The notes under the pieces were generated by a model, which worked only from the letters and a program-made list of their open reading frames with translations, did not search any database and was not told the DNA's origin. A DNA stretch of 64,000 nucleotides, taken from the sequence record MW822008.1; one strand, given 5' to 3'. This DNA is from Escherichia phage BF17. The number at the start of each line of letters is the position of its first letter. Position 1 is the stretch's first letter. The position numbers and the translations under genes are program-made. Below are positions 43,108 to 64,000 of this stretch, in pieces.

Positions 43108-43227
43108 TTCAACATATAGACAGGGGAAGCTCCGCAGGGAAAGCATTGGACAGGCTTTAACATATGTTATATATGTTAAAATTCAGCCTGGACAAATGCG
43201 ATCACTAGGATTCTCCCCAGGCTAAAC

Positions 43228-43520
43228 CCCGTAATCATATGTAGTCATAAGTAATCATATATAAACATTTATGTAATCATTTATAATCATTGTAGTGATT
43301 AGTATTGAGTACTAGAGTGTAATAGAGTACAGGAATGTGCACGTTTAATCAAGAACGTAGCAGTACTGCCCCAAAAGTATTCAGTACTGAAGGTGTCGAT
43401 ATCCCACTAAAGTAGGCAGAGGAAGTCTGCCGTACTTTTTAGTTTCCAAGCTCCTTTTCCATTTTTCAAATTACATCAAATGTAATCAAAAGTAATCACG
43501 CAATGATTAGTACTGAATTA
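43228..43520. repeat. cluster of GTAATCA / TGATTAC heptamer repeats
   Basis: GTAATCAT five times in 43228-43300; ATGTAATCAAAAGTAATCACGCAATGATTAG at 43470-43515. Confidence 0.5.
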
Positions 43521-44194
43521 TTACTTTCACCTTAATTTCAATTACCCTTTTACCCGTCGGGGTAAAATTCAATTACCCCTTGAGGCTCCAGAAAAAAGTT
43601 GGTTAGTACTCCATCCTAAATCTCGATCCTAAAAATTTTGGAGTACCTATGAAATAAAAGTTGGATCTTCGAAAGTTGAAATTTACGTTGGGACGTTTAT
43701 GATTTGTGGGATATAATGATGTTTGTAGACGGGTAGTTCTCAAGAATATCAGTACTGAATAATGAAAGAAAGTTATTGACATTATGATTCAGTACTGTAT
43801 AATGTTCTACATAGCTTCAAGGGTGATGAGTTGCTGCGAACAATTCATTTACTCTACCTCCTGTCGTGAGACAGTACAGAAAAGATAGTTCCTCCTGTGG
43901 TGGTACATCTTTTTGAACCTCATATGAAAATCGTAATAACAGTACTGATATTAACAGAATGGTGTCAGTACTGATTTTAATCTAAAGCATTATGCCACCA
44001 GCACAAGCTGGTGGATTCCCTCTAACAGTATTCAGTACTACATGATAGTCTTCATCCTCCTAGGGTAACATAGTGAGGGCTATGATGGCAGTACTGAATA
44101 CTCCCTTTCAAAAGATAGATCTATGGTATAGTACTGACGGATTTTGGGCGTAGTTACCCTGGATGGATTTTGGACGTAGATATGTCTAGCCCTC

Positions 44195-44335
44195 CAGAAG
44201 TCTGGAAGTAAAGATGGCTATCCATCTAGACGGCTAAACGGCTAGATTTCTGGATGGCTAGATGGCTAGACGTTTGGACGGCTAAACGGCTAGATGGTTA
44301 CACGTCTGGAAGTATAGACGGCTAAATCAAAATTT
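44195..44335. repeat. iteron-like cluster of GGCTA(A/G)A / ACGGCTA repeats
   Basis: GGCTA nine times in ~130 bp. Confidence 0.55.
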
Positions 44336-45081
44336 TATTTTGTTTTTCCAATAGTTCCCCTACCGCGTGGGGATAGTTTCCCCGCAGTATCTGGAGTTAG
44401 ATTTTTCTGAATCTGGAATCATTATCTTATAAACTGGGGGCAATGTCAACGACCTGGACGGATATTTTTAAAAATTTTTTCAGTACTGAATTTTGGGCGT
44501 AACTATGCACCCGGTGGGCTTGAGTCTTTCTCGACTTGATGGAACTATTATACAGTACTGAAAAAATAAAGCAATACCCTGGAAGCAAAAAAGTTTTAAT
44601 TAATTTGCTTGCTATCCTGGGCCGGACTATGGTACTATATTTCAGTACTGAGAAAGTGCGTTTACCTGCTAGGGTGCGGGAGTGTATCCTTTTTTTATAT
44701 CTTGAATTTTGGGCGTAATTTCGCACCCTCTGGGGTTTCCGCTTTCTCGCGTCTATGTAGTAATTATACGCTTTTTCAGGATCAAGTCAATACCTAAAAA
44801 CAAAATAATTGAAAATAATTTAACGCGTTTAAACGGCCCGTAAAGCCCTGGAATGATTGGAATGGTGCAAATGTATAGCTTATGTGTATTAATGCGTTAG
44901 AATGCGTCTGAGGCCGTTTTACGGGGTATGGGGATGATTTGGTGGATTGATTCAGTACTGAATAATAGTACTACTATATAGAAAGATAGTTCCCCTGGAT
45001 GGTTGCAGTACTGAATGATAGTACTGAATAATAGTTCCCCTATATAGAAAGAAAACTATTTTAAAAGTATTTGTAGAAAGT

Positions 45082-45142
45082 ACTTGCAAACTAAGTTTAA
45101 CGGCGTATAATGTTTTACATCGAGAGCGGGAACACTTCCCGC
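45082..45142 (+). promoter_or_regulatory. early-type sigma70-like promoter with leader hairpin
   Basis: ACTTGCAAACTAAGTTTAACGGCG TATAAT ... GCGGGAACACTTCCCGC. Confidence 0.6.
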
Positions 45143-45166
45143 TACATATTACGAGAGATTAAAACG

Positions 45167-45529
45167 ATGGCGACTCAAATCACTAAAATTATTGCTAACC
45201 TGGTTAACTTTCGCGACGAGATGAAAGATCTTCCGGCAGAAACGGTAAAAATTCACATTTCAGCTTATCGGGAACTTATTGCAATGTTACCGCTTAAGCG
45301 TGAACAATACGCCGCGACCGTGATGCTTGATGCGATGATCCATAAGATGATCGCCAGTGATTTAACGATGGTTTATCAGTATATGGGCGAAAATTTCGCG
45401 GTGTATAGTAAACCAGTACCAGGAATGGAAAGTACAGAAGTATTACACGGTTTAAATTTAAAACAAGATGCATGGGATAATATGCCTCGTTTCCTGGTAT
45501 GGGCTGACAGTGGCAAAATTTACGAATAA
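45167..45529 (+). CDS. hypothetical protein
   Basis: ORF 45110 trimmed to MATQITK; the longer reading starts inside the promoter. Confidence 0.6.
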   Translation: MATQITKIIANLVNFRDEMKDLPAETVKIHISAYRELIAMLPLKREQYAATVMLDAMIHKMIASDLTMVYQYMGENFAVYSKPVPGMESTEVLHGLNLKQDAWDNMPRFLVWADSGKIYE

Positions 45530-45541
45530 GTTTAATAAAGT

Positions 45542-45602
45542 ACTTGCAAACTAAGTTTAAAAGCGTATAATACTTTACATCAGGTGGGGAATAGTTCCCC
45601 AC
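45542..45602 (+). promoter_or_regulatory. early-type promoter with leader hairpin
   Basis: TACTTGCAAACTAAGTTTAAAAGCG TATAAT; hairpin GGGGAATAGTTCCCC. Confidence 0.6.
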
Positions 45603-45623
45603 TATAATTAAGAGATTAATTTT

Positions 45624-45857
45624 ATGAGTACTATTTTAACTGTTTCTCAATCCGTTGCACTGACTGACCTATTAAACGCTTTAAGCCGTTGCACTGAGGT
45701 TGGCTTGTTTGATGTGGTTGACGTTGCACCGGACGTTATTAATCATTTTTGTGATGCGATGGAAGAATGTAAGGAAGATGATAGCCGTATGATGGCGGTC
45801 GCCTTTGAGGAAGTACAGCCGGGTGAGATCAAAGGTTTACCAGTACTGAAAAAATAG
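45624..45857 (+). CDS. hypothetical protein
   Basis: 77-aa ORF after promoter/hairpin. Confidence 0.6.
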   Translation: MSTILTVSQSVALTDLLNALSRCTEVGLFDVVDVAPDVINHFCDAMEECKEDDSRMMAVAFEEVQPGEIKGLPVLKK

Positions 45858-45918
45858 TACTTGCAAACTAAGTTTAAAAGCGTATAATACTTTCTATCAG
45901 GTGGTGAATAGTTCCCCA
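45858..45918 (+). promoter_or_regulatory. early-type promoter with leader hairpin
   Basis: near-identical copy of 45542 unit. Confidence 0.6.
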
Positions 45919-45939
45919 CTATATAAGAGGATTAAAAAA

Positions 45940-46179
45940 ATGGCTAAATCAAAAATGTTCTTAGGTCACAAAAACAAAACTCATTGGAATGTAAGCCTTT
46001 GGATTAATAACGATGAGTCATTGTACCGGTTGGCCCAGGACTTTATTAATGATAGCACTAATCGCAATGATGCGGCCCGTCATATGATGCTATTTTTAGA
46101 ACAGACTGGACAAGATAAAACACCGGACGGATTCAAATATAGCACTACTGCGATCCGTGCGGCGATGGTTGGAATGTAA
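45940..46179 (+). CDS. hypothetical protein, paralog of 47980-48219
   Basis: trimmed to MAKSK; shares GHKNKT.WNVSLWINN and PDGFKYSTTAIRAAMVGM. Confidence 0.6.
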   Translation: MAKSKMFLGHKNKTHWNVSLWINNDESLYRLAQDFINDSTNRNDAARHMMLFLEQTGQDKTPDGFKYSTTAIRAAMVGM

Positions 46180-46265
46180 TAGAATTTATTTAAAGTACTA
46201 TCATTTTTTTGCGATAGTACTTTATAATAGTGTTTTATTCATACACCAACGATAAGGGTAACAGC

Positions 46266-46532
46266 ATGAATATTAAGTATTTTGCGACGCGTGAACAAGC
46301 TCGGATCGCCGCACGCCAGGACGGGGCAACGTTTAAAGATATGGGAGCGGGATCGGCAAGTGGTGAACGTTGGGCCATTGTAAAGCGTAGTACCGCCAGA
46401 TCATTACAGTACTGGTTAGCGGCGTTAAAAAGTCCCGATAGTGTATCGCGTCGAGTGGTAGAAATAAAGCTCGACCGAAAGGGCAACCGCGTGACCGTGT
46501 ACCGTACTAAAAAGATTGCAGTACTTGAATAA
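46266..46532 (+). CDS. hypothetical protein, paralog of 58638-59033
   Basis: trimmed to MNIKYFATREQARIAARQDG; shares DRKGNRVTVY. Confidence 0.6.
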   Translation: MNIKYFATREQARIAARQDGATFKDMGAGSASGERWAIVKRSTARSLQYWLAALKSPDSVSRRVVEIKLDRKGNRVTVYRTKKIAVLE

Positions 46533-46536
46533 AAAG

Positions 46537-46598
46537 TACTTGCAAACTATGTTTAATGGCGTATAATGTTTTACATCGAGAGCGGGAACACTTCCCGC
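46537..46598 (+). promoter_or_regulatory. early-type promoter with leader hairpin
   Basis: ACTTGCAAACTATG...TATAAT...GCGGGAACACTTCCCGC. Confidence 0.6.
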
Positions 46599-46619
46599 CT
46601 ATAACCTGGAGTAATAAAA

Positions 46620-46850
46620 ATGACTAATATGTATATGACTGAAGTTAAAACCGTAAAAGATACTACCACGAATAAAACTACTTACTTACAGCGGATCTGC
46701 GGTGTATGGCAACGTATCAGCAAATCAAAGTACTTTAAATTAACATCATATGCAAACCGTTCGGATTCATTCAGTACTGAAATAAAAGGTAATAAAGTAC
46801 ACCAATACGGCACTTATTATTATTATAGCCTGGACGCGATTGCAGTATAA
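46620..46850 (+). CDS. hypothetical protein
   Basis: 76-aa ORF, GGAG upstream. Confidence 0.55.
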   Translation: MTNMYMTEVKTVKDTTTNKTTYLQRICGVWQRISKSKYFKLTSYANRSDSFSTEIKGNKVHQYGTYYYYSLDAIAV

Positions 46851-47092
46851 GCAGTTTACAAATCTTTACAATTGCCGGTATTGACTTATTTTGTCAGTAC
46901 TGGCATAATGTATTCATTGGCAGATAAGCCGTAGCCCATAGGGTGCGGGAGTGTATCTATAGAAAAAGTAGTTTATTACAGTTACAATTGTGCACCCGGT
47001 GGGTTAGCTGTTGTCATGGGGTATATTATGCCAGTACTTGATAATGCTGTCAATACTTTTTTTACTATTCAGTACTGAAAACTATTTTTAAA

Positions 47093-47130
47093 AAGTACTT
47101 GCAAACTATGTTTAAAGGCGTATAATGTTT
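47093..47130 (+). promoter_or_regulatory. early-type promoter driving a non-coding leader
   Basis: ACTTGCAAACTATGTTTAAAGGCG TATAAT; no ORF before the next promoter. Confidence 0.55.
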
Positions 47131-47215
47131 TACATCAGGACGGGGAACGAAATAAGTAACTCCCCGTTAAGTAGCCCAGGAGTAAGGCACACGAAAAACT
47201 CCCCTGATAAAATAG
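47131..47215 (+). ncRNA. candidate small RNA / structured leader, copy 1
   Basis: ~85-nt conserved block CAGGACGGGGAACGAAA.AAGTAAC.CCCGTTAAGTAG.CCAGGAGTAAG...CCCCTGATAAAA; second copy at 57447-57525. Confidence 0.4.
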
Positions 47216-47262
47216 TTTGACAAATGTTTTTAAAAGCGTATAATACTTACATCAACTACTGA
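47216..47262 (+). promoter_or_regulatory. promoter upstream of 47277
   Basis: TTGACA ... TATAAT before GAGGG and ATG. Confidence 0.45.
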
Positions 47263-47276
47263 ATGAGGGTTACAAA

Positions 47277-47888
47277 ATGAAAACTATCACTACTACTACT
47301 TTCGTTATGGATTTTTCTGAATTGAACGCAGAACAAAAAACGTCAGCTATCGAACTGGTTCGGGAACGTGAAAAAAACTTAAACGATGATTATTTTTCTG
47401 AAAGTGAAATTGAATACTATAAAGAAACAGTACTACCGGAATATGGCATTAATGACGCTGATTTACGTTTCAGTGGCTTTTGGTCCCAGGGTGACGGTGC
47501 ATCAATCAGTACTGACCACGTTGACGCAGTGAAGTTTTTACGCAAGGTAAGAGCATTAACTAAGTATCGCTCAATCCGTCACTTGCTGAATGAAGATGAT
47601 TTGGCGATGAGTGTAAAGCGTTCTCACTCCCACTACTCGCATGAAAACACTGTAAGCGGGTACATTGAATCGGCTTACACTGATTTAACCGCAAAACAAG
47701 AAACGTTAGTTAATGAGCTTGAGGAACTACTCACTGAAACTATTCGTGAATTATCCCGCAAGTTGTACCGTGATTTAGAGAATGCATATGAGGATCAATT
47801 CACTACTGAAAACATTACGGCACTGATTGAGGGTAACGAATATCAATTCAATGTTATTGATGGCGTAGTAGAATCAATCGAATATTAA
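47277..47888 (+). CDS. hypothetical acidic protein
   Basis: 203-aa ORF. Confidence 0.65.
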   Translation: MKTITTTTFVMDFSELNAEQKTSAIELVREREKNLNDDYFSESEIEYYKETVLPEYGINDADLRFSGFWSQGDGASISTDHVDAVKFLRKVRALTKYRSIRHLLNEDDLAMSVKRSHSHYSHENTVSGYIESAYTDLTAKQETLVNELEELLTETIRELSRKLYRDLENAYEDQFTTENITALIEGNEYQFNVIDGVVESIEY

Positions 47889-47896
47889 TTTAAAAA

Positions 47897-47960
47897 AGTA
47901 CTTGCAAACTAAGTTTAAAAGCGTATAATACTTTATATCGAGGCGGGGAGTGGTTCCCCG
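47897..47960 (+). promoter_or_regulatory. early-type promoter with leader hairpin
   Basis: ACTTGCAAACTAAG...TATAAT; hairpin GCGGGGAGTGGTTCCCCGC. Confidence 0.6.
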
Positions 47961-47979
47961 CTCAAACGAGGATTTAAAA

Positions 47980-48219
47980 ATGGCTAGTTCTAAAACTTAC
48001 AACGGGCACAAAAACAAAACTCAATGGAATGTAAGCCTTTGGATTAATAACGGTGAGTCATTGTATCGGCTTGCACAAAGTTGTATCGCACAAAGTAGAA
48101 CTAAAGATATTGCAGCGGAATGTATGTACCGCAGATTAAAAGCCAACGGTACTACTACAACGCCGGACGGTTTTAAGTATAGCACTACTGCGATCCGTGC
48201 TGCAATGGTTGGAATGTAA
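47980..48219 (+). CDS. hypothetical protein, paralog of 45940-46179
   Basis: trimmed to MASSKTYNGHKNKTQWNVSLWINN. Confidence 0.6.
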   Translation: MASSKTYNGHKNKTQWNVSLWINNGESLYRLAQSCIAQSRTKDIAAECMYRRLKANGTTTTPDGFKYSTTAIRAAMVGM

Positions 48220-48276
48220 TATTCAGTACTGAGATAATGGCGGGTAATAGTTCCCGCCTTTACTGAGGGTTATCTA

Positions 48277-48537
48277 ATGAGTAAAGTAATAAAGTACAAT
48301 GTGTTAAGCAAATCATTGTCTATCAGTGAATGCACCGATGGTTTTTGGATGTACGATGAAACGCGTGGCATGAATTTAGCTATGCGTGCAAAAACTGCTG
48401 AGGCGGCGTATATTCAAGCACTGGAATACTACCAGGAACGTTTAAAGGAAGTAGAAGAAGATTATAAAAGCCTCAAAGCGAAAGTAGATCATTTCGTCGG
48501 TCAATTCATCGAGGAAGACGACGACAAACAATATTGA
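48277..48537 (+). CDS. hypothetical protein
   Basis: 86-aa ORF, GAGGG upstream. Confidence 0.55.
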   Translation: MSKVIKYNVLSKSLSISECTDGFWMYDETRGMNLAMRAKTAEAAYIQALEYYQERLKEVEEDYKSLKAKVDHFVGQFIEEDDDKQY

Positions 48538-48540
48538 AAA

Positions 48541-48606
48541 AGTACTTGCAATTAGTTTTCAGTACTGTATAATGGTTTACATCAAAGGGAGAAATGGTTC
48601 TCCCTG
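48541..48606 (+). promoter_or_regulatory. early-type promoter with leader hairpin
   Basis: ACTTGCAATTAG...TATAAT; hairpin GGGAGAAATGGTTCTCCC. Confidence 0.6.
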
Positions 48607-48623
48607 GTAATGAGGAAAATAAA

Positions 48624-48845
48624 ATGGCTAATATCACTACTCTTTCCCAACTGGAAGCACTGGTTAAATCTATGCGGGAACATGCCGACAAAATCGGCGT
48701 ACAAGATCCAGCCGTTTGCTTCTGCGACGAATTGAATGATGATACCCTGGTAATAGCAGAAGTCCAGGACGTTTCTAACTATTCATCGCGTTACACTGGC
48801 GGCGTAGCAAATAAAGGTGACTTCTGTTTATACCTTACAAAATAA
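48624..48845 (+). CDS. hypothetical protein
   Basis: trimmed to MANITTLSQ. Confidence 0.55.
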   Translation: MANITTLSQLEALVKSMREHADKIGVQDPAVCFCDELNDDTLVIAEVQDVSNYSSRYTGGVANKGDFCLYLTK

Positions 48846-49009
48846 CAACGCGGGGAGATAATAACTCCCCGTTACTTTTTCAGTACTGAATCATTTAATA
48901 GACGGATCTATGCACCCGGTGGGTTAGTGACTGTTTCGTCTTGATGTAGTAATTATGCCAGTACTGGATGCACTTGTCAACAACTATTTTTCAAATACTT
49001 TTTATTAAA

Positions 49010-49068
49010 ATACTTGCAATTAGTTTTTAAACGCGTATAATGTTTTGCATAGGGGGAGCGGTTCCCCT
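49010..49068 (+). promoter_or_regulatory. early-type promoter with leader hairpin
   Basis: ACTTGCAATTAG...TATAAT; hairpin GGGGGAGCGGTTCCCC. Confidence 0.6.
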
Positions 49069-49088
49069 GGTAACTAAGGAATAATAAA

Positions 49089-49325
49089 ATGCTTGAACAA
49101 ATCAAATCAACGTCTTCGAATGTAACGGGAACGGTAGCACACTTTACTAGTGATGAATCGCGGGGCGTTCCCTATTGTGCTGTACATGTAAACACTGAGG
49201 GTAACTACTGGTTTACGGTTTACGGATCATATTCATTTGGACGGCCAGGGCATCAAAAAATTCTGGATAAAGTACAACCAACGGGTAAAAATATCACTGC
49301 TGAAATGTTTTATAAAAAATCATAA
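49089..49325 (+). CDS. hypothetical protein
   Basis: 78-aa ORF. Confidence 0.55.
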   Translation: MLEQIKSTSSNVTGTVAHFTSDESRGVPYCAVHVNTEGNYWFTVYGSYSFGRPGHQKILDKVQPTGKNITAEMFYKKS

Positions 49326-49326
49326 A

Positions 49327-49390
49327 GTACTTGATAATAGTTTTTAGTACTGTATAATATTTTACATCGCAAGGGGGAGCGGTTCCCCCT
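49327..49390 (+). promoter_or_regulatory. early-type promoter with leader hairpin
   Basis: ACTTGATAATAG...TATAAT; hairpin GGGGGAGCGGTTCCCCC. Confidence 0.55.
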
Positions 49391-49409
49391 GGTAACTAAG
49401 GATAATCAA

Positions 49410-49709
49410 ATGAAAATTGCAATCATCGCCCTGGCTTTATCTGTTTCCTCTTTCGCTGTTAATGCGTCATTAGATGTAAGTAGTGAAAAATTCATTCAGT
49501 GCACTGTTGCAATGACCGATGAAAGTACTGGCGAGATTGTTTTAAAGGATTTAGAGATCCAGCCGGAAGCATTTAAAAACGGGCCGTTCCATGAAGAAGA
49601 CGAAAAAGGTAGCACGACAATTTATTACGATGCAAGTACTAAACGCGGTTCGGTCACTGTTATGGATACTGAGAAAGTAACTCATACTGGCGTTATTAAT
49701 TGCCGTTGA
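49410..49709 (+). CDS. small secreted protein
   Basis: 99 aa; signal-peptide-like MKIAIIALALSVSSFAVNA. Confidence 0.6.
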   Translation: MKIAIIALALSVSSFAVNASLDVSSEKFIQCTVAMTDESTGEIVLKDLEIQPEAFKNGPFHEEDEKGSTTIYYDASTKRGSVTVMDTEKVTHTGVINCR

Positions 49710-49730
49710 TATATACTACGGGGTAACATC

Positions 49731-49961
49731 ATGACTAAGCGAATTGTTTTACTTAACGAAAGCAGTACTACACAACTACTTAACGCCGTGCATTATGATA
49801 TTGAAACGAGCGTTAATCTTATCAGTACTGTAGTACTGTTGGACACTGGAAAGGTCGCCAATGATAAAGCGATTGCAGGTATACTAACGGATCTTGAGCC
49901 TGGTAGCAGTGCATCAATAACGTTAAATGGTAAAGTGTTTAACATTTTACTTACTGATTAA
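49731..49961 (+). CDS. hypothetical protein
   Basis: 76-aa ORF. Confidence 0.5.
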   Translation: MTKRIVLLNESSTTQLLNAVHYDIETSVNLISTVVLLDTGKVANDKAIAGILTDLEPGSSASITLNGKVFNILLTD

Positions 49962-49966
49962 GTACA

Positions 49967-49995
49967 TAGCCCACCTGGTGGGCTTTTTTGTTTTT
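49967..49995 (+). terminator. rho-independent terminator
   Basis: AGCCCACCTGGTGGGCT + TTTTTGTTTTTG. Confidence 0.65.
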
Positions 49996-50043
49996 GTAGT
50001 ATCGTAGTACTGAGATACTTTGAAAATAGTTTTAAAAAAGTAG

Positions 50044-50072
50044 TTGACATTACCGCAGAAAAGCGTAGAATG
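50044..50072 (+). promoter_or_regulatory. sigma70-like promoter with ~120-nt leader
   Basis: TTGACA, 16-17 nt, TAGAAT. Confidence 0.5.
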
Positions 50073-50194
50073 TATTACATCAAGACGGGGAGCACTAAGT
50101 AGACCGCCAGTAAGTCGAACGAAAAACTGGACACGTCGAGAAAACTTTGATACACTAATAAACGTAAACTAAACTTTAATTGAGGATTTATAAA

Positions 50195-50677: not shown

Positions 50678-50698
50678 CAATTAAAGTACTGAATCACT

Positions 50699-55927: not shown

Positions 55928-55933
55928 AAAGTA

Positions 55934-56548: not shown

Positions 56549-56553
56549 AAACT

Positions 56554-56616: not shown

Positions 56617-56631
56617 TGAGAGGAAAGAAAA

Positions 56632-56844: not shown

Positions 56845-56861
56845 TATAAGGAGTACAGCTT

Positions 56862-56954
56862 ATGCAAATGAATCCGATGATTATTGTGTTAGCTGTACTT
56901 ATGATCATTCATGCAATAGTAAAAGTATTAACGCAATCAGGAGTAATAAAATGA
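56862..56954 (+). CDS. small hydrophobic peptide
   Basis: 30-aa ORF; AAGGAG upstream; single TM-like helix. Confidence 0.35.
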   Translation: MQMNPMIIVLAVLMIIHAIVKVLTQSGVIK

Positions 56955-57124
56955 TTCAAGTAGAATTATCAGTACTGAAAGATCTGTTTTATCGGTTAGG
57001 TACTACTGGCGAGTATCCTAAAAGTGATACCGCAAAACTTTTTGTATCACTCGACTTATGGCAACGCGAACAATTAGTAATGTCCTGGCGTAAAGGTAAA
57101 GCAGATAGCGAGGTGAAAGCATGA
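56951..57124 (+). CDS. small protein
   Basis: 57-aa ORF overlapping upstream stop (ATGA). Confidence 0.35.
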   Translation: MIQVELSVLKDLFYRLGTTGEYPKSDTAKLFVSLDLWQREQLVMSWRKGKADSEVKA

Positions 57125-57270
57125 AAGAATTCTTATTCGAAGTAGTGTTTCAAGGTGTCGGTAGTAACCAACTGATTCGCTCAAGTGGTTATAATGTTAA
57201 CCAGGCATGGAATAACATTAAACAAATGTACCCGAACGCTATCACCTATCGCAACCCGAAAGAAGTTTAA
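57121..57270 (+). CDS. small protein
   Basis: 49-aa ORF overlapping upstream stop. Confidence 0.35.
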   Translation: MKEFLFEVVFQGVGSNQLIRSSGYNVNQAWNNIKQMYPNAITYRNPKEV

Positions 57271-57284
57271 AAATATTTGAAAAA

Positions 57285-57306
57285 GGGATTGACTCCGGTC
57301 AGTCCC
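57285..57306 (+). terminator. hairpin terminator with embedded TTGACT
   Basis: GGGATTGACTCCGGTCAGTCCC. Confidence 0.55.
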
Positions 57307-57414
57307 TTTGCTATTATATACGCATAGAAACAAATCAGCCCACAGGGTGCATAAATGTATCTATTGTTTGCTGGTGGCTAGTACTGAAAACTATTTTTAA
57401 AAAAGTACTTGCAT

Positions 57415-57446
57415 TGTACTTAGAATCAAGTATAATGTTTTACATC
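57415..57446 (+). promoter_or_regulatory. early-type promoter driving the second candidate small-RNA copy
   Basis: ACTTGCATTGTACTTAGAATCAAG TATAAT. Confidence 0.55.
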
Positions 57447-57525
57447 AGGACGGGGAACGAAACAAGTAACCCCGTTAAGTAGTCCAGGAGTAAGACATAA
57501 GAAAACCTCCCCTGATAAAATAGTT
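57447..57525 (+). ncRNA. candidate small RNA / structured leader, copy 2
   Basis: near-identical to 47131-47215; again between an upstream promoter and a downstream TTGACA...TATAAT. Confidence 0.4.
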
Positions 57526-57585
57526 TGACAATAGAAAGTAAACGAGTATAATACTTACATCAACCACTGATAAGGAAACATTAAA

Positions 57586-57861
57586 ATGCGGATTCTACTG
57601 ACAGCTAACGAAATCGAACAAGTACTGACTACTAACCTGGAAGACTGGAAACGTGAAGCAGATATCCAGGCGGTTCAACTGCTTAACGATAAGTTAACGC
57701 CGGATGACTTAAGCAAGATTGTAGATCCTCAATTCTACGAAGATATCCACGACACCGCGTTAAGCGTCGAGGATGTACTAGATAAGCACTACATTGATAT
57801 TGATTTGCAGGTTTACGGTCGTAAAAACTTTATCACTATTCACGACATTTATAATAATTAA
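57586..57861 (+). CDS. hypothetical protein
   Basis: 91-aa ORF. Confidence 0.55.
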   Translation: MRILLTANEIEQVLTTNLEDWKREADIQAVQLLNDKLTPDDLSKIVDPQFYEDIHDTALSVEDVLDKHYIDIDLQVYGRKNFITIHDIYNN

Positions 57862-57863
57862 GT

Positions 57864-57925
57864 ATTGACAAAGTATCTTAGTACTGTATAATAGTTTACA
57901 TCGAGAGGGGGAATGGTTCCCCTCC
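57864..57925 (+). promoter_or_regulatory. sigma70-like promoter with leader hairpin
   Basis: TTGACAAAGTATCTTAGTACTG TATAAT; hairpin GGGGGAATGGTTCCCCTCC. Confidence 0.6.
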
Positions 57926-57947
57926 TAACAAAGAGAGAGAAATAAAA

Positions 57948-58130
57948 ATGGCTAAATGCACTATCTGCAAGAAAGAAATAGTATTAGTTCCAAGTGCCCG
58001 TGAACGTGCCGCTCGGTTCGGTGGCAAAGCGTCAGACTATACAAAAATGTTTACTACCCATGCAGCTTGCCAGGTAGCAAAACGTTCACAAGAAAGCGTA
58101 GAATTAATGCGTAAACTTTCCAAAAAATAA
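57948..58130 (+). CDS. small Cys-containing protein
   Basis: 60 aa; C-x2-C at N-terminus. Confidence 0.5.
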   Translation: MAKCTICKKEIVLVPSARERAARFGGKASDYTKMFTTHAACQVAKRSQESVELMRKLSKK

Positions 58131-58133
58131 GTA

Positions 58134-58196
58134 TTGACAAAGTATCTTAGTACTGTATAATAGTTTACATCAAGTGAGGGGAAACGGTTCCCCTCC
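58134..58196 (+). promoter_or_regulatory. sigma70-like promoter with leader hairpin
   Basis: near-duplicate of 57864 unit. Confidence 0.6.
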
Positions 58197-58218
58197 TAAC
58201 AAAGAGAGAGAAATAAAA

Positions 58219-58542
58219 ATGGCTATGATCCTTGCCCAGAAAGTAGAACTGAAAATTGTAACCTCCTTTGACATTAAAGTTAATCGGTGGACTGATTCAC
58301 ACGGCAATACTTACCACTCTTGCTACGTGTCCGCGTTAATTGGCGACCGCTGGGAAGACTTGGGACATGAAACCTTTACTTACGGTTACGGTACACAAGG
58401 AGAATACACGGGCTTGGAGATCATTAAAGAAACCGTTATAGGTTTCAACCCGAAAGAAAAAGTTATTCACCGCATCGAAAAAGAGATTAACAAAGAAATA
58501 ACAGTTCGCTACTACGATGTAAAACGTAAGAAAGACATGTAA
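58219..58542 (+). CDS. hypothetical protein, paralog of 51801-52124
   Basis: trimmed to MAMILAQ. Confidence 0.6.
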   Translation: MAMILAQKVELKIVTSFDIKVNRWTDSHGNTYHSCYVSALIGDRWEDLGHETFTYGYGTQGEYTGLEIIKETVIGFNPKEKVIHRIEKEINKEITVRYYDVKRKKDM

Positions 58543-58637
58543 TAGAATCCATTTAAAGTACTATTTGACATTGCCCAGATAGTACTTTATAATAGACTCT
58601 AACTTGTAGTACTAACTCAACTAATAGGATGTATACC

Positions 58638-59033
58638 ATGATTACTAAATTCTACGCTACCCGTGAAGCTGCCCGTATTGTTGCACGCGAGGAAGGAGCA
58701 GCATTTAAAGACATGGGCAAAGATGCACCGAAAGGTCAACGCTGGGCCGTACAGTTCAAAGAAATCTCTGATATTGTGAATTCACCTGAGCCAGTACTAA
58801 CAGCAGCAGAACTAAAACGAGCGGATTTACTGGCGGCAGTACTTAACGCACAAGATGAATTTATCGCTGATTCTGATATCAAAGTACAGACAAACCATAC
58901 CGCTTGGACTCACGCGGATCACCTGGCAAACCTTAAGCGTCCAAGTGAACTGGTTCGCAACCAGAAAGAGATCCGACACGACCGTAAGGGTAATCGTGTA
59001 ACAGTATACAGTAAACGCCGCCAGGTTATCTAA
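58638..59033 (+). CDS. hypothetical protein, paralog of 46266-46532
   Basis: trimmed to MITKFYATREAARIVAREEG. Confidence 0.6.
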   Translation: MITKFYATREAARIVAREEGAAFKDMGKDAPKGQRWAVQFKEISDIVNSPEPVLTAAELKRADLLAAVLNAQDEFIADSDIKVQTNHTAWTHADHLANLKRPSELVRNQKEIRHDRKGNRVTVYSKRRQVI

Positions 59034-59054
59034 TAACTTGCAGTACTAACAACA

Positions 59055-59088
59055 CGGCGGGATCAGTTCCCGCCTTTTTTATAGGATA
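59055..59088 (+). terminator. rho-independent terminator
   Basis: GGCGGGATCAGTTCCCGCC + TTTTTT. Confidence 0.65.
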
Positions 59089-59095
59089 AACTAAA

Positions 59096-59350
59096 ATGAT
59101 TAAGGTACAACTATCTAAAGATAATATCTTGCGGGTACACTATAAAGCACCACAGAGAATCATCACAAAGGCCGTACAGCTTGCTAATGAGTTTATTAAT
59201 GGTAACCTATTACCAAGGAAGTTAAGCAACGGAAAACTGCGTGTAATCGATGTAGACACTAACAACAGAATAGTAATTGAGAACACAGGAAAGATAAACC
59301 TATATGAACACCAACAATATAATAAGAAAATAAAACTAATATCACGTTGA
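59096..59350 (+). CDS. hypothetical protein
   Basis: 84-aa ORF. Confidence 0.5.
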   Translation: MIKVQLSKDNILRVHYKAPQRIITKAVQLANEFINGNLLPRKLSNGKLRVIDVDTNNRIVIENTGKINLYEHQQYNKKIKLISR

Positions 59351-59376
59351 CAGTACTCAATTGTTTTAGTATTATG
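59347..59376 (+). promoter_or_regulatory. sigma70-like promoter
   Basis: TTGACA-17-TATTAT; duplicated at 59623. Confidence 0.55.
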
Positions 59377-59403
59377 TACACATACCAACACGGGAGAAAC
59401 AAA

Positions 59404-59622
59404 ATGAAATTATCTAAAATCGAAAAGAAAACTATTGATGAAGCAGTTAAGCACGGTTATACCTTTCGTAATGATTCACATTTTACCAATTTTCAACAAG
59501 GCCAAAGGACTATTAAAAAACTAATTGACAAAGGTTTATTAGTTAAAGTAGATAACGGTAACGGCATTGAGTATCAGCCAACCCAAGACGCATTATCTTT
59601 AAAGAAATATGCAATTATCTAA
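59404..59622 (+). CDS. hypothetical protein
   Basis: trimmed to MKLSKIEKK. Confidence 0.55.
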   Translation: MKLSKIEKKTIDEAVKHGYTFRNDSHFTNFQQGQRTIKKLIDKGLLVKVDNGNGIEYQPTQDALSLKKYAII

Positions 59623-59653
59623 TTGACAGTACTCAAATGTTTTAGTACTATAT
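59623..59653 (+). promoter_or_regulatory. sigma70-like promoter (duplicate of 59347 unit)
   Basis: TTGACAGTACTCAAATGTTTTAG TACTAT. Confidence 0.55.
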
Positions 59654-59679
59654 GTACATACCAACACGGGGAAAACAAA

Positions 59680-59922
59680 ATGATTACTTTAGAAAAACGT
59701 ATCAAAGAAACTACATCGCTGGTGGAACTGTTAACAGTACTGAAATGCCGTACTACTCGGTTTAGTACACCGGACTTTATTAATATGGTTGATGTTAACG
59801 GTCGTTATCGCATTGCAGTAGAACATGGAACAGCGAAAGTATTCAGTACTAAAAACACTAAGGAAGTGATTCACGCGGTTAGTGTGAAAAAAGTGGTTGC
59901 CATTGATAGTAAAGTACTGTAA
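59680..59922 (+). CDS. hypothetical protein
   Basis: trimmed to MITLEKRIKE. Confidence 0.55.
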   Translation: MITLEKRIKETTSLVELLTVLKCRTTRFSTPDFINMVDVNGRYRIAVEHGTAKVFSTKNTKEVIHAVSVKKVVAIDSKVL

Positions 59923-59953
59923 GATAGTTTCATTAACTCAAGGAGAACATGCA

Positions 59954-60538
59954 ATGCGTAATTATACTAAATTCATCCGTACCCTGTCAGAAATGGAAAC
60001 CAACAAAGAGATCCTTTCAGCTTGTCGGTTAGCTGGTCTGGAGATCATCGGTGCGGGTTCTTCCCGTATTGTATTCGCTTTAAATGATCGGTTAGTGATT
60101 AAGGTCGCCAATTGTGATGCGGGTGTAGAACAAAATGAAACTGAATGTAAGGTATGGAATTTTTTAGACTATGACCGCCCTCAATTGAAACAGTACTTTG
60201 CAAAGGTGCATATGCATTTATGCGATCCTGATAATATGTTTATCGTTATGGATCGGTTGAGTACTGCAAGCAAAGGCAGTGTAAAGCACGTTAACGCGTG
60301 CAACGAATTAAAGTACAATATTAAACGTAATGCCATTGAACGCCAGCACCGCTTTGCTGATGCACTACAACACGTCGATGATACATTATCAACACTAACG
60401 ATAAGAGATATCAGAAAACAGAATATCGGCCAGGATCGTAATGGACTTATTAAAGTACTTGATTACGGTTTAACCCGCAATATCTGGAATCAGTACTATA
60501 AAAAGCGTGATGTGGCAGCAAGTAAAGTAACACGATAA
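59954..60538 (+). CDS. possible small protein-kinase-like protein
   Basis: trimmed to MRNYTKF after AGGAGA; kinase-like motifs IGAGSSRIVF, VIKVA, IRDIRKQNIG, VLDYGL. Confidence 0.45.
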   Translation: MRNYTKFIRTLSEMETNKEILSACRLAGLEIIGAGSSRIVFALNDRLVIKVANCDAGVEQNETECKVWNFLDYDRPQLKQYFAKVHMHLCDPDNMFIVMDRLSTASKGSVKHVNACNELKYNIKRNAIERQHRFADALQHVDDTLSTLTIRDIRKQNIGQDRNGLIKVLDYGLTRNIWNQYYKKRDVAASKVTR

Positions 60539-60551
60539 AAAAGATTAAAAA

Positions 60552-60573
60552 AGGGATTGATTTCGGTCAGTCC
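60552..60573 (+). terminator. hairpin terminator with embedded -35-like box
   Basis: GGGATTGATTTCGGTCAGTCCC. Confidence 0.55.
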
Positions 60574-60674
60574 CTTTGCTATTATATATTCATTGAGAGA
60601 TAGCTCACTGACCCACAGGGTGCATAAATGTATCTATTATATAAGTATTCAGTACTGAAAACTATTTTTAAAAA

Positions 60675-60742
60675 GTACTTGCATTGTACTTAGAATCAAG
60701 TATAATGTTTTATATCGAGAGGGGGGGAACGGTTCTCCCTCA
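60675..60742 (+). promoter_or_regulatory. early-type promoter with leader hairpin
   Basis: ACTTGCATTGTACTTAGAATCAAG TATAAT; hairpin GGGGGGGAACGGTTCTCCCTC. Confidence 0.6.
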
Positions 60743-60761
60743 AAGAATAAGGAATAAAATC

Positions 60762-60983
60762 ATGACTACAATGACTTGCATTTACGCTTCCAATCTTCTG
60801 AATGATGCGGCCTTTAATGTTGATTCAGAATATCAATGTTATCGGGATGAAAATAAAAAAGTTTTTGTAGTTGATAATAATGGTTTCCATATTGAAATAC
60901 AATCCGGCTTCACTGGTGTTGATGGTAAATCAGTATGGGGCGTACAGGATGATAACGGTACATATCATTTTAAACGTAATTAA
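60762..60983 (+). CDS. hypothetical protein
   Basis: trimmed to MTTMTCIYAS. Confidence 0.55.
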   Translation: MTTMTCIYASNLLNDAAFNVDSEYQCYRDENKKVFVVDNNGFHIEIQSGFTGVDGKSVWGVQDDNGTYHFKRN

Positions 60984-60985
60984 GT

Positions 60986-61046
60986 ATTGACAAAGTATCT
61001 TAGTACTGTATAATAGTTTACATCAAGGGGAGAATAGTTCTCCCCG
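60986..61046 (+). promoter_or_regulatory. sigma70-like promoter with leader hairpin
   Basis: TTGACAAAGTATCTTAGTACTG TATAAT; hairpin GGGGAGAATAGTTCTCCCC. Confidence 0.6.
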
Positions 61047-61067
61047 ATACTAAAAGGAAACAAAATT

Positions 61068-61340
61068 ATGTCCAGCTACTCCGCTACTATGATCATTAAA
61101 GATATGAACGGTAATCCTACTTCCGCTGGTGGATCATTTGGAAACATTAATTTAGATGGTCGGTTATCCATGCAATCAGCCATCGATGCAGCGAAAGAAG
61201 TTTTTAAGAATGAATGCACTGTAAGCAAGCTGGATTATATGGGATTCGCTATCGAGAAAACTAATCGTTTTGTGAACTACAAAAATCCACTGATGATTGA
61301 TACTAACCTGAAAGCTAACGAAGTGGAATACTTATTATGA
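61068..61340 (+). CDS. hypothetical protein
   Basis: 90-aa ORF. Confidence 0.55.
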   Translation: MSSYSATMIIKDMNGNPTSAGGSFGNINLDGRLSMQSAIDAAKEVFKNECTVSKLDYMGFAIEKTNRFVNYKNPLMIDTNLKANEVEYLL

Positions 61341-61528
61341 CAGTTGAAGAAGTTAAAAAAGTACTGGCAGTACTACGCTATCATAATCATTGCAAGGTGA
61401 AGAATGATCCTGATTATGTTGATTCATCCCTGGAGGAAGACACATTAAACGCAATAAGCCATATGCAAACATTAGCAAAGCGTATGACCGAAAAGAATAG
61501 ACCGGACTATATCGGAAATAAAATTTAA
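61337..61528 (+). CDS. hypothetical protein
   Basis: 63-aa ORF overlapping upstream stop. Confidence 0.5.
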   Translation: MTVEEVKKVLAVLRYHNHCKVKNDPDYVDSSLEEDTLNAISHMQTLAKRMTEKNRPDYIGNKI

Positions 61529-61530
61529 AA

Positions 61531-61597
61531 AGTACTTGCATTGTAGTTAGATTAACGTATAATGTTTTACATAGAGCGGGGGAATAGTTCTCCCGCC
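61531..61597 (+). promoter_or_regulatory. early-type promoter with leader hairpin
   Basis: ACTTGCATTGTAGTTAGATTAACG TATAAT; hairpin GCGGGGGAATAGTTCTCCCGC. Confidence 0.6.
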
Positions 61598-61614
61598 AGT
61601 CCAGGAGATACACC

Positions 61615-61878
61615 ATGAACACTATCGAAATCACTATCAATGCACACGTATACGACAACGTAGTACTGCAAACTACTATGACCGCTAACGATACCAGTAC
61701 TTTGCGGAATACTGTTATTAGTGCCGTATGTGCCGCTATCGGTGATGTCGCCCTGGAAAATGCAAAACACGTAAACGATGGTTTCACTATGTGCAAACGT
61801 GATAACGCAAAACATATCATCGTGGAAGGTTACGGCGGTGTAGAATTTAATGTTTATATGAAAAAAGTACTTGCATAA
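61615..61878 (+). CDS. hypothetical protein
   Basis: 87-aa ORF. Confidence 0.55.
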   Translation: MNTIEITINAHVYDNVVLQTTMTANDTSTLRNTVISAVCAAIGDVALENAKHVNDGFTMCKRDNAKHIIVEGYGGVEFNVYMKKVLA

Positions 61879-61927
61879 TAACTAAAACAAAGTATAATGT
61901 TTTGCATAGGGGGAGATGTCCTCCCCC
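61866..61927 (+). promoter_or_regulatory. early-type promoter with leader hairpin
   Basis: ACTTGCATAATAACTAAAACAAAG TATAAT; hairpin GGGGGAGATGTCCTCCCCC. Confidence 0.55.
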
Positions 61928-61945
61928 ACTAAAAGGAGTAATAAA

Positions 61946-62170
61946 ATGGCTAACTTTGATGAACTGATGCGGGAAGTAGCTAACCTGGCAGAAGAGAAAA
62001 AATCATTCGATTCTATCTATAACACCTCTTACCGTGATTCAGTACTGGCATGTAACCAGGATCAAAAAGATGAACTAATCGCCACCTATCATGAAGCATG
62101 GAAGTACTACCGACAATGGGAGAAAGAAGAAAGAGAGTCTACCATTGACGGCCTCAATAATCTAATCTAA
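61946..62170 (+). CDS. hypothetical protein
   Basis: trimmed to MANFDELMRE. Confidence 0.55.
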   Translation: MANFDELMREVANLAEEKKSFDSIYNTSYRDSVLACNQDQKDELIATYHEAWKYYRQWEKEERESTIDGLNNLI

Positions 62171-62189
62171 AAGTTTTATTTCAGTACTA

Positions 62190-62220
62190 TTGACATAGCT
62201 TGATAGTACTGATGTAATAA
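62190..62220 (+). promoter_or_regulatory. sigma70-like promoter (TTGACA class), repeat copy
   Basis: TTGACATAGCTTGATAGTACTGA TGTAAT. Confidence 0.5.
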
Positions 62221-62246
62221 CTTTACTAACTACAAGGGGAAACATC

Positions 62247-62504
62247 ATGGAACAATTCACACAATATCGGGTAAATCCTCAAGCTATGGCCTACGTAGAA
62301 GACCATAAAACGTTACCAGTACTGCAACCAGTTAAAGGCCATATCTATCGTGCAATGTCGTGGAGTACGGCCCAGGATGGCTATAAAACCGTAGCCGTTG
62401 GTATGTACTGCGGTAATGGTGAATGGTTTGATCCAAATAATCCGGTAGCCATTGACAGTACTGAAAAAATGAAATGGGCCGACTACATCGAAGATATTTC
62501 ATAA
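62247..62504 (+). CDS. hypothetical protein
   Basis: 85-aa ORF. Confidence 0.55.
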   Translation: MEQFTQYRVNPQAMAYVEDHKTLPVLQPVKGHIYRAMSWSTAQDGYKTVAVGMYCGNGEWFDPNNPVAIDSTEKMKWADYIEDIS

Positions 62505-62518
62505 AAAGAATAAAAAAA

Positions 62519-62540
62519 AGGAGTTGACTTCGGTCCGCTC
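62519..62540 (+). terminator. hairpin terminator with embedded TTGACT
   Basis: GGAGTTGACTTCGGTCCGCTCC. Confidence 0.55.
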
Positions 62541-62746
62541 CTTTAGTACTATATACGCATAGAAACAAATCAGCCCACAGGGTGCATAAGTGTATCCAAA
62601 ATATATAGTTAATAACGGTGAGTAACTATCTGCTGGTGGAACTAAAACTATTAATAAAAAAGTATTGACAAAGTATATCAGTACTGCAATAATGTATCTC
62701 GTAGGGCGGCAATGGTGCGACGGCCCACAAAGTTAGGAGATTCAAA

Positions 62747-63079
62747 ATGAGTACTTCAATCGCTATCGTTAAAGCTTTCATCCGTACCAATGTTTCATCT
62801 GTATTCATCGACGGTCTGGATCGGGAAGTAGAATACTCAATCATTATCGCACAGACTGCAAACGGTGCTCGGTATATCCTTAATGATAGTGAAGCAAATC
62901 ACTACTACTTCACTAAAGCTACTGGCTTTAAACGCATCGATGCTGATGTAGTATACGCTAAGATGAATAAGCTGGTAGACAAGATTAACGCTAAAGGTAC
63001 TATAGATTTACAGTACTGGACCGAAACCGATCCAGAATATGGATCTCACCGCTACCTGAATCCAGGTATTAAAATGTAA
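62747..63079 (+). CDS. hypothetical protein
   Basis: 110-aa ORF; AGGAG upstream; preceded by TTGACA promoter at 62664. Confidence 0.55.
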   Translation: MSTSIAIVKAFIRTNVSSVFIDGLDREVEYSIIIAQTANGARYILNDSEANHYYFTKATGFKRIDADVVYAKMNKLVDKINAKGTIDLQYWTETDPEYGSHRYLNPGIKM

Positions 63080-63083
63080 AAAG

Positions 63084-63150
63084 TACTTGCATAGTACTTA
63101 GAATCAAGTATAATGTTTTACATAGAGAGGGGGAAATGGTTCTCCCTCCT
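63084..63150 (+). promoter_or_regulatory. early-type promoter with leader hairpin
   Basis: ACTTGCATAGTACTTAGAATCAAG TATAAT; hairpin GAGGGGGAAATGGTTCTCCCTCC. Confidence 0.6.
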
Positions 63151-63168
63151 AAATTAAGGAGTTTTATC

Positions 63169-63570
63169 ATGACCTTCTCAATCAATTCCTTCGCTGACGT
63201 TTTAGTACTGGCTCGGACTTTCGGTAAAGATGCACTGGAGTACGCTGTAAGTAATGGCACTATCCAACCGGAACAGTGCCGCATCATTGGAAACTGCAAA
63301 CGTTGGGCGGTATCCAATACTATTGCACTGGAAAACTTCCACGATGGCAACAATGAATATTCTGTTGATGTAGTATTCGAAGCCGTTGATCTCGGCGGTA
63401 TCTATAATACTAACCTGAATGATGTGCGTATCGTTCGCACGGGGTTCGGTGCTTATGATGTATCTATCCGTGAAGCTATGGACAACGGATACATTAGCAA
63501 GGACTTACTTGCTCACATCATGCAGCTGTGTACGGAACGTAACGAAGCACGCACTATCTTAGGACTGTAA
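63169..63570 (+). CDS. hypothetical protein
   Basis: trimmed to MTFSINSF; 133 aa. Confidence 0.6.
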   Translation: MTFSINSFADVLVLARTFGKDALEYAVSNGTIQPEQCRIIGNCKRWAVSNTIALENFHDGNNEYSVDVVFEAVDLGGIYNTNLNDVRIVRTGFGAYDVSIREAMDNGYISKDLLAHIMQLCTERNEARTILGL

Positions 63571-63584
63571 GCGTTACACATCAC

Positions 63585-63615
63585 CAAACATCATAGGCCG
63601 CCTTGTAGCGGCCTT
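63585..63615 (+). terminator. terminator-like hairpin
   Basis: GGCCGCCTTGTAGCGGCC; no strong T-run. Confidence 0.4.
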
Positions 63616-63638
63616 AACTATATCAGGAGTACATACAT

Positions 63639-63848
63639 ATGTTCTATACAGTATACAGCGTTCTAGGTACTATTGCAGGCGTACATGATAACGTCAATGA
63701 TGCTATGCGTACAGTACTGCAACAGGTTCCACTAAAGCCTAAGACCATTAAGCAGATGACAGCACGACTAACCAGGGCGACCGATGGCGTGGAAGTATGG
63801 CAGGACTACGGGGATACACAGATAATCGTTAGCGTAACGAAGGATTAA
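63639..63848 (+). CDS. hypothetical protein
   Basis: 69-aa ORF, AGGAG upstream. Confidence 0.55.
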   Translation: MFYTVYSVLGTIAGVHDNVNDAMRTVLQQVPLKPKTIKQMTARLTRATDGVEVWQDYGDTQIIVSVTKD

Positions 63849-64000
63849 TGCGTAAAGGGATCTAGTACTGATTCAGAAAAAAGTCAAGGCGTTTTTAAAA
63901 TTATGCGTTAAAAAAATGCATAGGTAATCCCTTGACTTTTTTGAAATAAAAGGGATTGGACTATGGCAAAATGCGTAGGGGGCTAAAGGGCGGGTAACCT

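Follow-up and report, generated by a model that had tools for sequence, protein, structure and literature searches.

A long direct terminal repeat with a probable early-gene array at the right end of an Asteriusvirus genome

The pre-early (first-step-transfer) region of phage T5 and the host-takeover module of SPO1 both hold small host-takeover genes that stand behind strong promoters for host RNA polymerase within a long terminal repeat or redundancy, a placement in which the genes enter the cell first and are present in two copies. Here we analyze a stretch of 64,000 nucleotides from Escherichia phage BF17 (MW822008.1), referred to as the window, and describe in it a direct terminal repeat (DTR) of about 20.6 kb that is probably an early region comparable to these. 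By megablast the window belongs to Asteriusvirus, the Escherichia coli jumbo myoviruses of the PBECO4/121Q group, with 88-99% identity to many records.

Long DTRs have been reported for other phages, with lengths of 20,993 bp in fEgEco12, determined with PhageTerm and with the termini confirmed by restriction digests (PMC13070987), 20,668 bp in Sharanji, also from PhageTerm, 22,456 bp with 51 open reading frames (ORFs) in CBB, and 39 kb in PA5oct. RpoD-like promoters in CBB were placed partly in the DTR. Infection by the related jumbo phage PA5oct is sensitive to rifampicin, and most of its DTR genes are highly transcribed at 5 min by RNA-seq (PMC7318152). Two further systems are relevant to the genes inside the repeat: the promoter-early stem-loop (PeSL) cassettes described for T4-type phages (Arbiol 2010, PMC2839356; Comeau 2014, PMC4122927), and the promoters of rV5, where 33 of the sigma-70 type, 11 of them with an extended -10, are on record.

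The shift in composition marks the edge of a terminal repeat

In the record of vB_Ec-M-J (378,573 bp), 'Direct Terminal Repeats' are annotated at 1-21525; the two copies agree at 21525/21525 positions. Position 1 of this record (AGTAGGCAGAGGAAGTCTGCC...) aligns to window position 43411, as does position 1 of fEgEco12, while window position 64000 (...GGGCGGGTAACCT) is the last base of both the vB_Ec-M-J record and its repeat. Because the termini of these relatives map to 43411 and the repeat end to 64000, we assign 43411-64000 as the right-hand DTR copy. Its boundaries coincide with determined physical termini, at 43411 in fEgEco12 and vB_Ec-M-J and at 64000 in vB_Ec-M-J. The window ends exactly on the last DTR base; it therefore represents the final, right-hand 64 kb of a linear genome whose record contains the repeat at both ends. 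The window holds one genome end; the identity of the two copies is seen in vB_Ec-M-J, which is 94-98% identical. The short spacer to the left of the terminus, which has no + strand ORF of at least 40 aa, aligns only to the internal (right-hand) copy in vB_Ec-M-J and not to the left end of that record.

We compared five blocks of the window: A (1-18.8 kb), B (18.8-38.0 kb), C (38.1-43.1 kb), N (43108-45109, 2 kb without coding sequence) and D (45.1-64 kb). A sequence-only reading had claimed by eye that the DNA beyond ~45 kb is richer in GC and in CTG, CGT and GCG codons, with a junction at the non-coding region, and the computed GC and codon usage do differ significantly between the two sides. 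GC content rises from 0.3495 in 1-43107 to 0.3835 in 43108-64000. The best single change point by maximum likelihood falls at 43,820, and its log-likelihood ratio of 36.9 exceeds that of all 200 shuffles of 500-bp blocks (mean 7.6, maximum 21.8). Over 1-30 kb of vB_Ec-M-J the best change point is 21,550, only 25 bp from the DTR end at 21,525, with GC of.386 inside and.325 outside. The GC-rich domain matches the repeat at both boundaries within 25-400 bp. Judged by these alignments and change points, the shift in composition and promoters is the boundary between unique sequence and DTR, and the physical terminus at 43410|43411 lies within the non-coding region. The junction that had been proposed is real, but it had not been recognized as a DTR boundary and physical genome end.

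The difference extends to the genes. Coding GC and GC at third codon positions are.402 and.370 in D, compared with.349 and.299 in A,.369 and.231 in B, and.330 and.358 in C; GC is up at all three codon positions, and per-gene GC in D differs from that in A, B and C with p = 5e-7, 9e-4 and 2e-8, respectively. Relative synonymous codon usage is 1.60 for CTG in D versus.74,.45 and.73 in A, B and C, and.78 for GCG versus.25,.42 and.33, in line with the earlier claim. The third codon named there, CGT, is not raised in D over A (2.27 vs 3.03), whereas CGC and CGG are. The full set of raised codons comprises CTG, CCG, CGC, CGG, GGC, ATC, GCG and GCC, and ATA and AGA are avoided. Because GTG, GTC, CTC, TCG, GAG and GGG show no rise, the change is codon-specific rather than a general increase of G/C endings. 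With 31 ribosomal, elongation-factor and related genes of E. coli MG1655 as the reference, the median codon adaptation index (CAI) is.465 in D (mean 0.447) versus.356,.302 and.289 in A, B and C (p <= 1.5e-5), and the rare codons AGA, AGG, ATA and CTA number 23 per 1000 in D versus 41, 55 and 93. The differences among blocks A, B and C are about as large as those that set them apart from D, and the left 43 kb is thus heterogeneous in itself.

Genes behind promoter-hairpin cassettes

Within the repeat, a non-coding leader gives way to ~53 small ORFs on a single strand (Table 1), separated by spacers with a median of 79.5 nt in D versus 8-10 nt in blocks A and C. The cassettes in these spacers have a constant order: an upstream segment of A/T with AGTACT, a -35 of CTTGCA or TTGACA, a -10 of TATAAT, ACATCA, a G/C stem-loop (GGGGAG..CTCCCC), a Shine-Dalgarno sequence and the ATG. 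On the + strand of the DTR, 34 sigma-70-like promoters score >= 10/12, as against 5.7 +/- 2.8 in shuffles; no such excess is present in block B (8 vs 9.2 expected) or in block C. The form GTACTTGCA-N16/17-TATAAT occurs in 15-18 copies, all on the + strand and all beyond 45 kb, and perfect TTGACA-N16/17-TATAAT has 9 copies in D, where the form TTGACA-N-(AGTACTG)TATAAT is seen. Hairpins with dG <= -8 kcal/mol lie within 48 nt downstream of 23 of the 38 strong promoters beyond 43.1 kb, compared with 25% of random windows. The sequence-only reading, which had described ACTTGCA/TTGACA-TATAAT promoters with leader hairpins after ~45 kb, is borne out here. For 1-43 kb it had described TTGACT-in-hairpin or -10-only promoters; these are found in block A and block B, respectively, although the left part is not uniform and weaker TTGACT copies recur in D.

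The block A composite carries its -35 (TTGACT) in a hairpin stem that is followed by a T-run and TATAAT (GGGTTGACTTCGGTCARCCCTTTTT..TATAAT), with 8 copies in 1-16 kb. Promoters of this kind are also of the sigma-70 type, and at least 4 weaker copies lie inside D. The dominant stem-loop of the DTR has no U-run or T-run and lies inside the transcript, whereas block-A-type stems carry the T-run. Because it lacks the U-run and sits in the transcribed leader, the DTR stem-loop is unlikely to be a terminator. Most block B genes have a GCCAGTAC..GTACTGGC terminator hairpin followed by an identical, -10-only, late-like promoter with a strong ribosome-binding site (ATAGTATAATGAATAAAGGAGG, 8 copies). 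Block C (GC.330) has no internal promoters and a C-rich coding strand, with a GC skew of -0.17 despite its + orientation.

The DTR proteins fall into 45 different PHROG families, and searches of Pfam and PHROGs yield almost no functions for them apart from a DksA/TraR zinc finger, a ParE-like domain and some domains of unknown function. An ~85-nt structured element is present in two copies, each located between tandem promoters, free of ORFs and predicted to fold into two hairpins. It is 88-90% identical to sequences of the Vequintavirinae A5-4 and W70, gives no Rfam match, and is too invariant for a covariation test. Across the whole window, a tRNA scan and Rfam at the gathering threshold returned nothing, and relaxing the Rfam cutoff to E <= 1 over 43-64 kb produced just three sub-threshold matches at chance level.

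One palindrome pervades these sequences. The window has 275 copies of AGTACT, a 12.7-fold excess over expectation that extends to all reading frames, often within CAGTACTG or TTCAGTACTGAA; CAGTACTG itself has 63 copies against ~0.7 expected. The three most over-represented hexamers, GTACTG (13.0x), AGTACT (12.7x) and CAGTAC (12.7x), are parts of this one palindrome. AGTACT density climbs from ~2.4 per kb to ~7 per kb at 38 kb and is highest over 38000-64000. In comparisons with two relatives the sites exceed random hexamers in conservation (z = 2.8 and 4.4), whether the DNA is coding or not, a sign of purifying selection. In Klebsiella phage K64-1 AGTACT is 13.7-fold over-represented and again one of the three leading hexamers, all of them from this palindrome. 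At fixed positions, an AGTACT abuts the -35 and/or the -10 in 28 of 38 DTR promoters but in only 3 of 25 in block A, and paired sites favor a spacing of 20-24 nt. Vequintavirinae early regions have only about 1 per kb, a mild enrichment. Our literature searches found no paper on CAGTACTG or AGTACT in these phages. The simplest guess is that AGTACT is a putative binding site of a dimeric phage protein. A broader proposal, which we make tentatively and would not yet bet on, is that (C)AGTACT(G) acts across the lineage of Rak2-like jumbo phages as a functional DNA signal, such as the putative operator of a phage-encoded dimeric DNA-binding protein, and that the DTR is a regulated early-gene array that trades genes with other coliphages. 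If so, binding at promoters could switch the early set off (or on), and the dispersed sites might have a role in coating, compacting or self-marking the genome as a whole. The palindrome in any case offers a testable lead to a DNA-binding function in this phage group.

The non-coding DNA around the terminus is itself rich in repeats. Five GTAATCA repeats, all in one orientation within 43231-43498, flank the cut site at 43410|43411 within 260 bp, three on the left (43231, 43251 and 43273) and two on the right (43482 and 43492), and vB_Ec-M-J has one additional unit; they are possible terminase recognition repeats. The leader is 87-98% identical in JNE01, vB_Ec-M-J and fEgEco12 and has no Rfam match. 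The perfect promoter inside it may drive a predicted non-coding transcript, and the 150 nt downstream of this promoter fold no better than shuffles (z -1.1). In the 8-bp array, which is identical in vB_Ec-M-J, lie 7 + strand copies of GGCTA[AG]A, out of 17 matches on both strands in the whole window.

Table 1. Coordinates of the repeat, its features and the flanking blocks in the window
Feature	Position	Strand	Details
Right-hand DTR copy	43411..64000	+	20,590 bp; 43411, the first repeat base, matches the left physical terminus; the final base of repeat and genome is 64000
Array of ~53 small ORFs with a median length of 85 aa	45080..63848	+	own cassette for most ORFs, in intergenic sequence
Spacer, non-coding unique sequence between the last block C gene and the terminus	43108..43410	.	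three GTAATCA repeats, two CAGTACTG palindromes
DTR leader, repeat-rich, non-coding	43411..45079	.	GC 0.375; ~12 CAGTACTG palindromes, ATTTTGGGCGTA repeats, hairpins
Perfect TTGACA-16-TATAAT promoter, no ORF behind it	43776..43803	+	inside the leader
Array of ~16 units with strict 8-bp period, A[CT]GGCTA[AG]	44196..44323	.	spacings of 8, 16, 24 and 32
~85-nt structured element, copy 1	47126..47216	+	predicted transcription from promoter 47099, ahead of a second promoter at 47217; minimum free energy (MFE) -22.3 kcal/mol, z -2.2
~85-nt structured element, copy 2	57435..57524	+	MFE -19.2 kcal/mol, z -2.0
DksA/TraR C4 zinc-finger protein	55670..55927	+	PF01258, E = 1.6e-10, 41 bits vs cutoff 24.9
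Example of a putative recombination-scar cassette	60987..61067	+	single copy in the window, without the extra gene
Block A, genes of ordinary size	1-18.8 kb	+	8 terminator-promoter composites at 971..15460
Block B, ~16 tandem paralogous ~380-aa RCC1-like genes	18796..38020	-	annotated in relatives as RCC1-like or virion structural
Block C, ~21-23 abutting ~60-aa ORFs	38124..43107	+	paralogous families of 11, 6 and 2 members

Other recurrent sequences lie on both sides of the boundary. Intergenic composites of greater length, ~145-240 nt, are found repeatedly in the DTR (53670-53821, 57271-57420, 60539-60684 and 62505-62747); in each, a block-A-type hairpin promoter with TATTAT precedes a GCCCAC.GGGTGC hairpin, which is followed by AGTACT and a D-type promoter. 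In block A, a 45-nt composite, GGGTTGACTTCGGTCAGCCCTTTTTGCTATAATCATTTCATCAA (971, 4565, 7608, 12080, 12663 and 15423), has ~95% identity to sequences in Serratia phage BF, Pectobacterium phage CBB, Erwinia jumbo phages and the T4-like Aeromonas phage 65, and is a PeSL-like motif conserved across distant phages. On the other flank of the repeat in vB_Ec-M-J (21624-29657) lies an unrelated array of 27 paralogs of ~70 aa, with no detectable homology to block C.

Gene traffic and the origin of the island

Four indels distinguish the DTR from that of vB_Ec-M-J; all are single genes, and their junctions lie inside cassettes. At the counterpart of 60987..61067, two near-identical promoter-hairpin units of ~75 nt flank an extra gene in vB_Ec-M-J (record positions 17804-18211). 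In comparisons with two relatives, 17 of 19 synteny breakpoints are intergenic or no more than 25 nt from the end of a gene (p = 6e-6). Matches to the DTR occur in 203 phage records, among which are Vequintavirinae (rV5-like), Phapecoctavirus and Justusliebigvirus with nucleotide identities of 72-90%. Blocks B and C match only 36 records, all of Asteriusvirus type, and the 59 records matched by block A are all Rak2-like jumbo phages except for a few very short matches (e.g., a 41-nt hairpin motif in Aeromonas phage 65). Thirteen records labeled 'Campylobacter phage' (e.g., MG065677, 140 kb) are ~86% identical to the small DTR gene at 61337-61528, as rV5-like coliphages are, and look mislabeled or contaminant.

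The explanation that we favor, and consider probable, is that the ~20.6-kb DTR is an immediate-early region of ~50 small genes with host-type promoters, host-like codons and a turnover driven by cassettes. Since nearly every gene appears to have its own near-consensus sigma-70 promoter, unmodified host RNA polymerase would transcribe the DTR genes once either end of the DNA enters the cell. Translation by the equally unmodified host apparatus would pull DTR codons toward those of E. coli (CTG, CCG, CGC, GGC, ATC and GCG up; ATA and AGA down), and these codons, together with G/C-rich leader hairpins, would lift GC above that of the middle/late and structural blocks. More speculatively, the G/C stem-loops in the 5' leaders probably stabilize or insulate the short transcripts. 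The ~75-nt units would in addition be substrates for recombination, by which single genes could be gained, lost and exchanged, including with unrelated large coliphages; the cassette-bounded indels and the sharing across families are observed directly, and the mechanism is our interpretation of them.

Several observations weigh against this account. The repeat boundaries of this phage are taken from relatives that are 94-98% identical. Our literature search found no Asteriusvirus transcriptomics, and both the timing implied by 'early' and the dependence on host RNA polymerase are inferred. Block A is also enriched in sigma-70-like promoters, 3-fold, and promoter class alone therefore does not separate an early set from the rest. 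The hairpins start ~5-8 nt from the predicted transcript start, further than would be ideal for 5'-end protection. CGG, a rare codon in E. coli, is among those raised in D. Finally, the non-coding DNA of the repeat is GC-richer too (.34-.375 vs.30), which means that codon adaptation is not the full explanation; part of this non-coding excess sits in G/C stems.

Three other explanations of the island deserve consideration. The 45-64 kb block could have been acquired horizontally from a GC-richer phage lineage, its composition not having drifted yet to that of the recipient. In keeping with this idea, ~12 DTR genes and the promoter-hairpin cassettes are common to Vequintavirinae and phAPEC8-like phages, the homologous early regions of A5-4 and W70 have near-identical cassettes and the GC content of the DTR (.383 and.391), and blocks A-C are without cross-family matches of this kind. 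The genes shared across families were ruled out as drivers of the shift, however, since shared and unshared DTR genes have the same GC (.397 vs.399) and CAI (.450 vs.445). The block is syntenic in all Asteriusvirus records, and the same GC-richer island, cassettes included, is present in Klebsiella phage K64-1, a member of a different genus. The cassettes also carry AGTACT, which is over-represented throughout Rak2-like genomes and sparse in the Vequintavirinae regions, which points to export at least as much as to import. We therefore regard a foreign origin of the whole block as rather unlikely; on the likeness of shared and unshared genes, the architecture of K64-1 and the synteny across Asteriusvirus, comparison with these genomes argues that the block is native to the lineage, with gene-level traffic and no foreign insert. 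Of the two origins that the sequence-only reading had offered for its junction, a mosaic of evolutionary histories accordingly holds for single genes and cassettes but not for the block as a whole. A junction between expression classes is the better supported, by the sigma-70 promoters and host-like codons and by the early transcription of DTR genes in the related PA5oct, with the timing inferred rather than measured.

Still less probable is an effect of recombination itself, in which recombination of the repeat in each infection cycle, as concatemers form, would bring GC-biased repair or conversion and so enrich the repeat in GC whatever its genes do. Such a process would account for a GC domain that fits both repeat boundaries so closely, for the GC-richer non-coding DNA and for the increase at all three codon positions. 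It sits poorly with synonymous changes that are codon-specific and follow E. coli preference rather than G/C endings generally, with the strong rise in CAI, and with a non-coding excess much of which lies in functional-looking G/C stems. The last alternative, which we consider highly improbable, takes the non-coding region for an origin or terminus of replication and the shift for a switch of the replication strand. The cumulative GC skew does reach its minimum at ~43-44 kb, in a region that is non-coding and full of short repeats, including the 8-bp periodic array. The sign of the skew mostly tracks the direction of transcription, however, with the maximum at 19 kb at the switch of gene strand, and block C is an exception for which the unusual amino-acid makeup of its paralogous proteins accounts. 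DnaA boxes are absent from the non-coding region and the leader, and a strand switch would leave the higher GC, the host-like codons and the promoter density unexplained.

Comparison with known systems

Recognition of the DTR locates the genome end, delimits the repeat and points to a likely early regulon, which should be useful for annotating Asteriusvirus and Rak2-like genomes, many of which were deposited with arbitrary starts or collapsed repeats. The change point in GC and codon usage, combined with sigma-70 promoter density, could locate terminal repeats without reads. The ~50 host-adapted early ORFs would be a natural search ground for host-takeover and anti-defence proteins, and the cassette structure would explain both the turnover of these genes and their movement between unrelated coliphages.

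The repeat is the same element as the long DTRs of Rak2-like phages: its terminus sequence is identical to those of fEgEco12 and vB_Ec-M-J, and it is of similar size, with ~50 small ORFs. The accounts of these repeats in the papers that we consulted give their length and ends, without the GC/codon island, the per-gene promoter-hairpin cassettes or the gene sharing across families. The word 'promoter' occurs 0 times in the fEgEco12 paper (PMC13070987), and the RaK2 paper is silent on promoters.

The cassettes most resemble PeSLs. Both have an A/T-rich upstream region, a near-consensus sigma-70 promoter, a G/C stem-loop (GGGG..CCCC), a Shine-Dalgarno sequence and an ATG, and both cluster around small ORFans in hyperplastic regions, with indels bounded by cassettes. 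In the DTR we find the promoter with Shine-Dalgarno sequence and start codon, the stable G/C stem-loop and the cassette-bounded indels together. The DTR cassettes differ in that the stem-loop lies mostly well downstream of the -10, in the transcribed leader and without a U-run, in that they have the extra AGTACT element, and in that the array is located in a terminal repeat rather than in internal hyperplastic regions. The early regions of rV5-like Vequintavirinae share near-identical cassettes, ~12 genes and the ~85-nt element with the DTR. These phages differ in having unrelated virion and replication modules, an internal position of the region in their records of ~137-145 kb, and only a mild enrichment of AGTACT there. 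Compared with the terminal repeats of T5 and SPO1, the present one is two-fold and 1.5-fold longer, respectively, and has more genes. A long terminal repeat that bears early genes is a known kind of feature, and it would account well for the present finding, here with PeSL-like cassettes.

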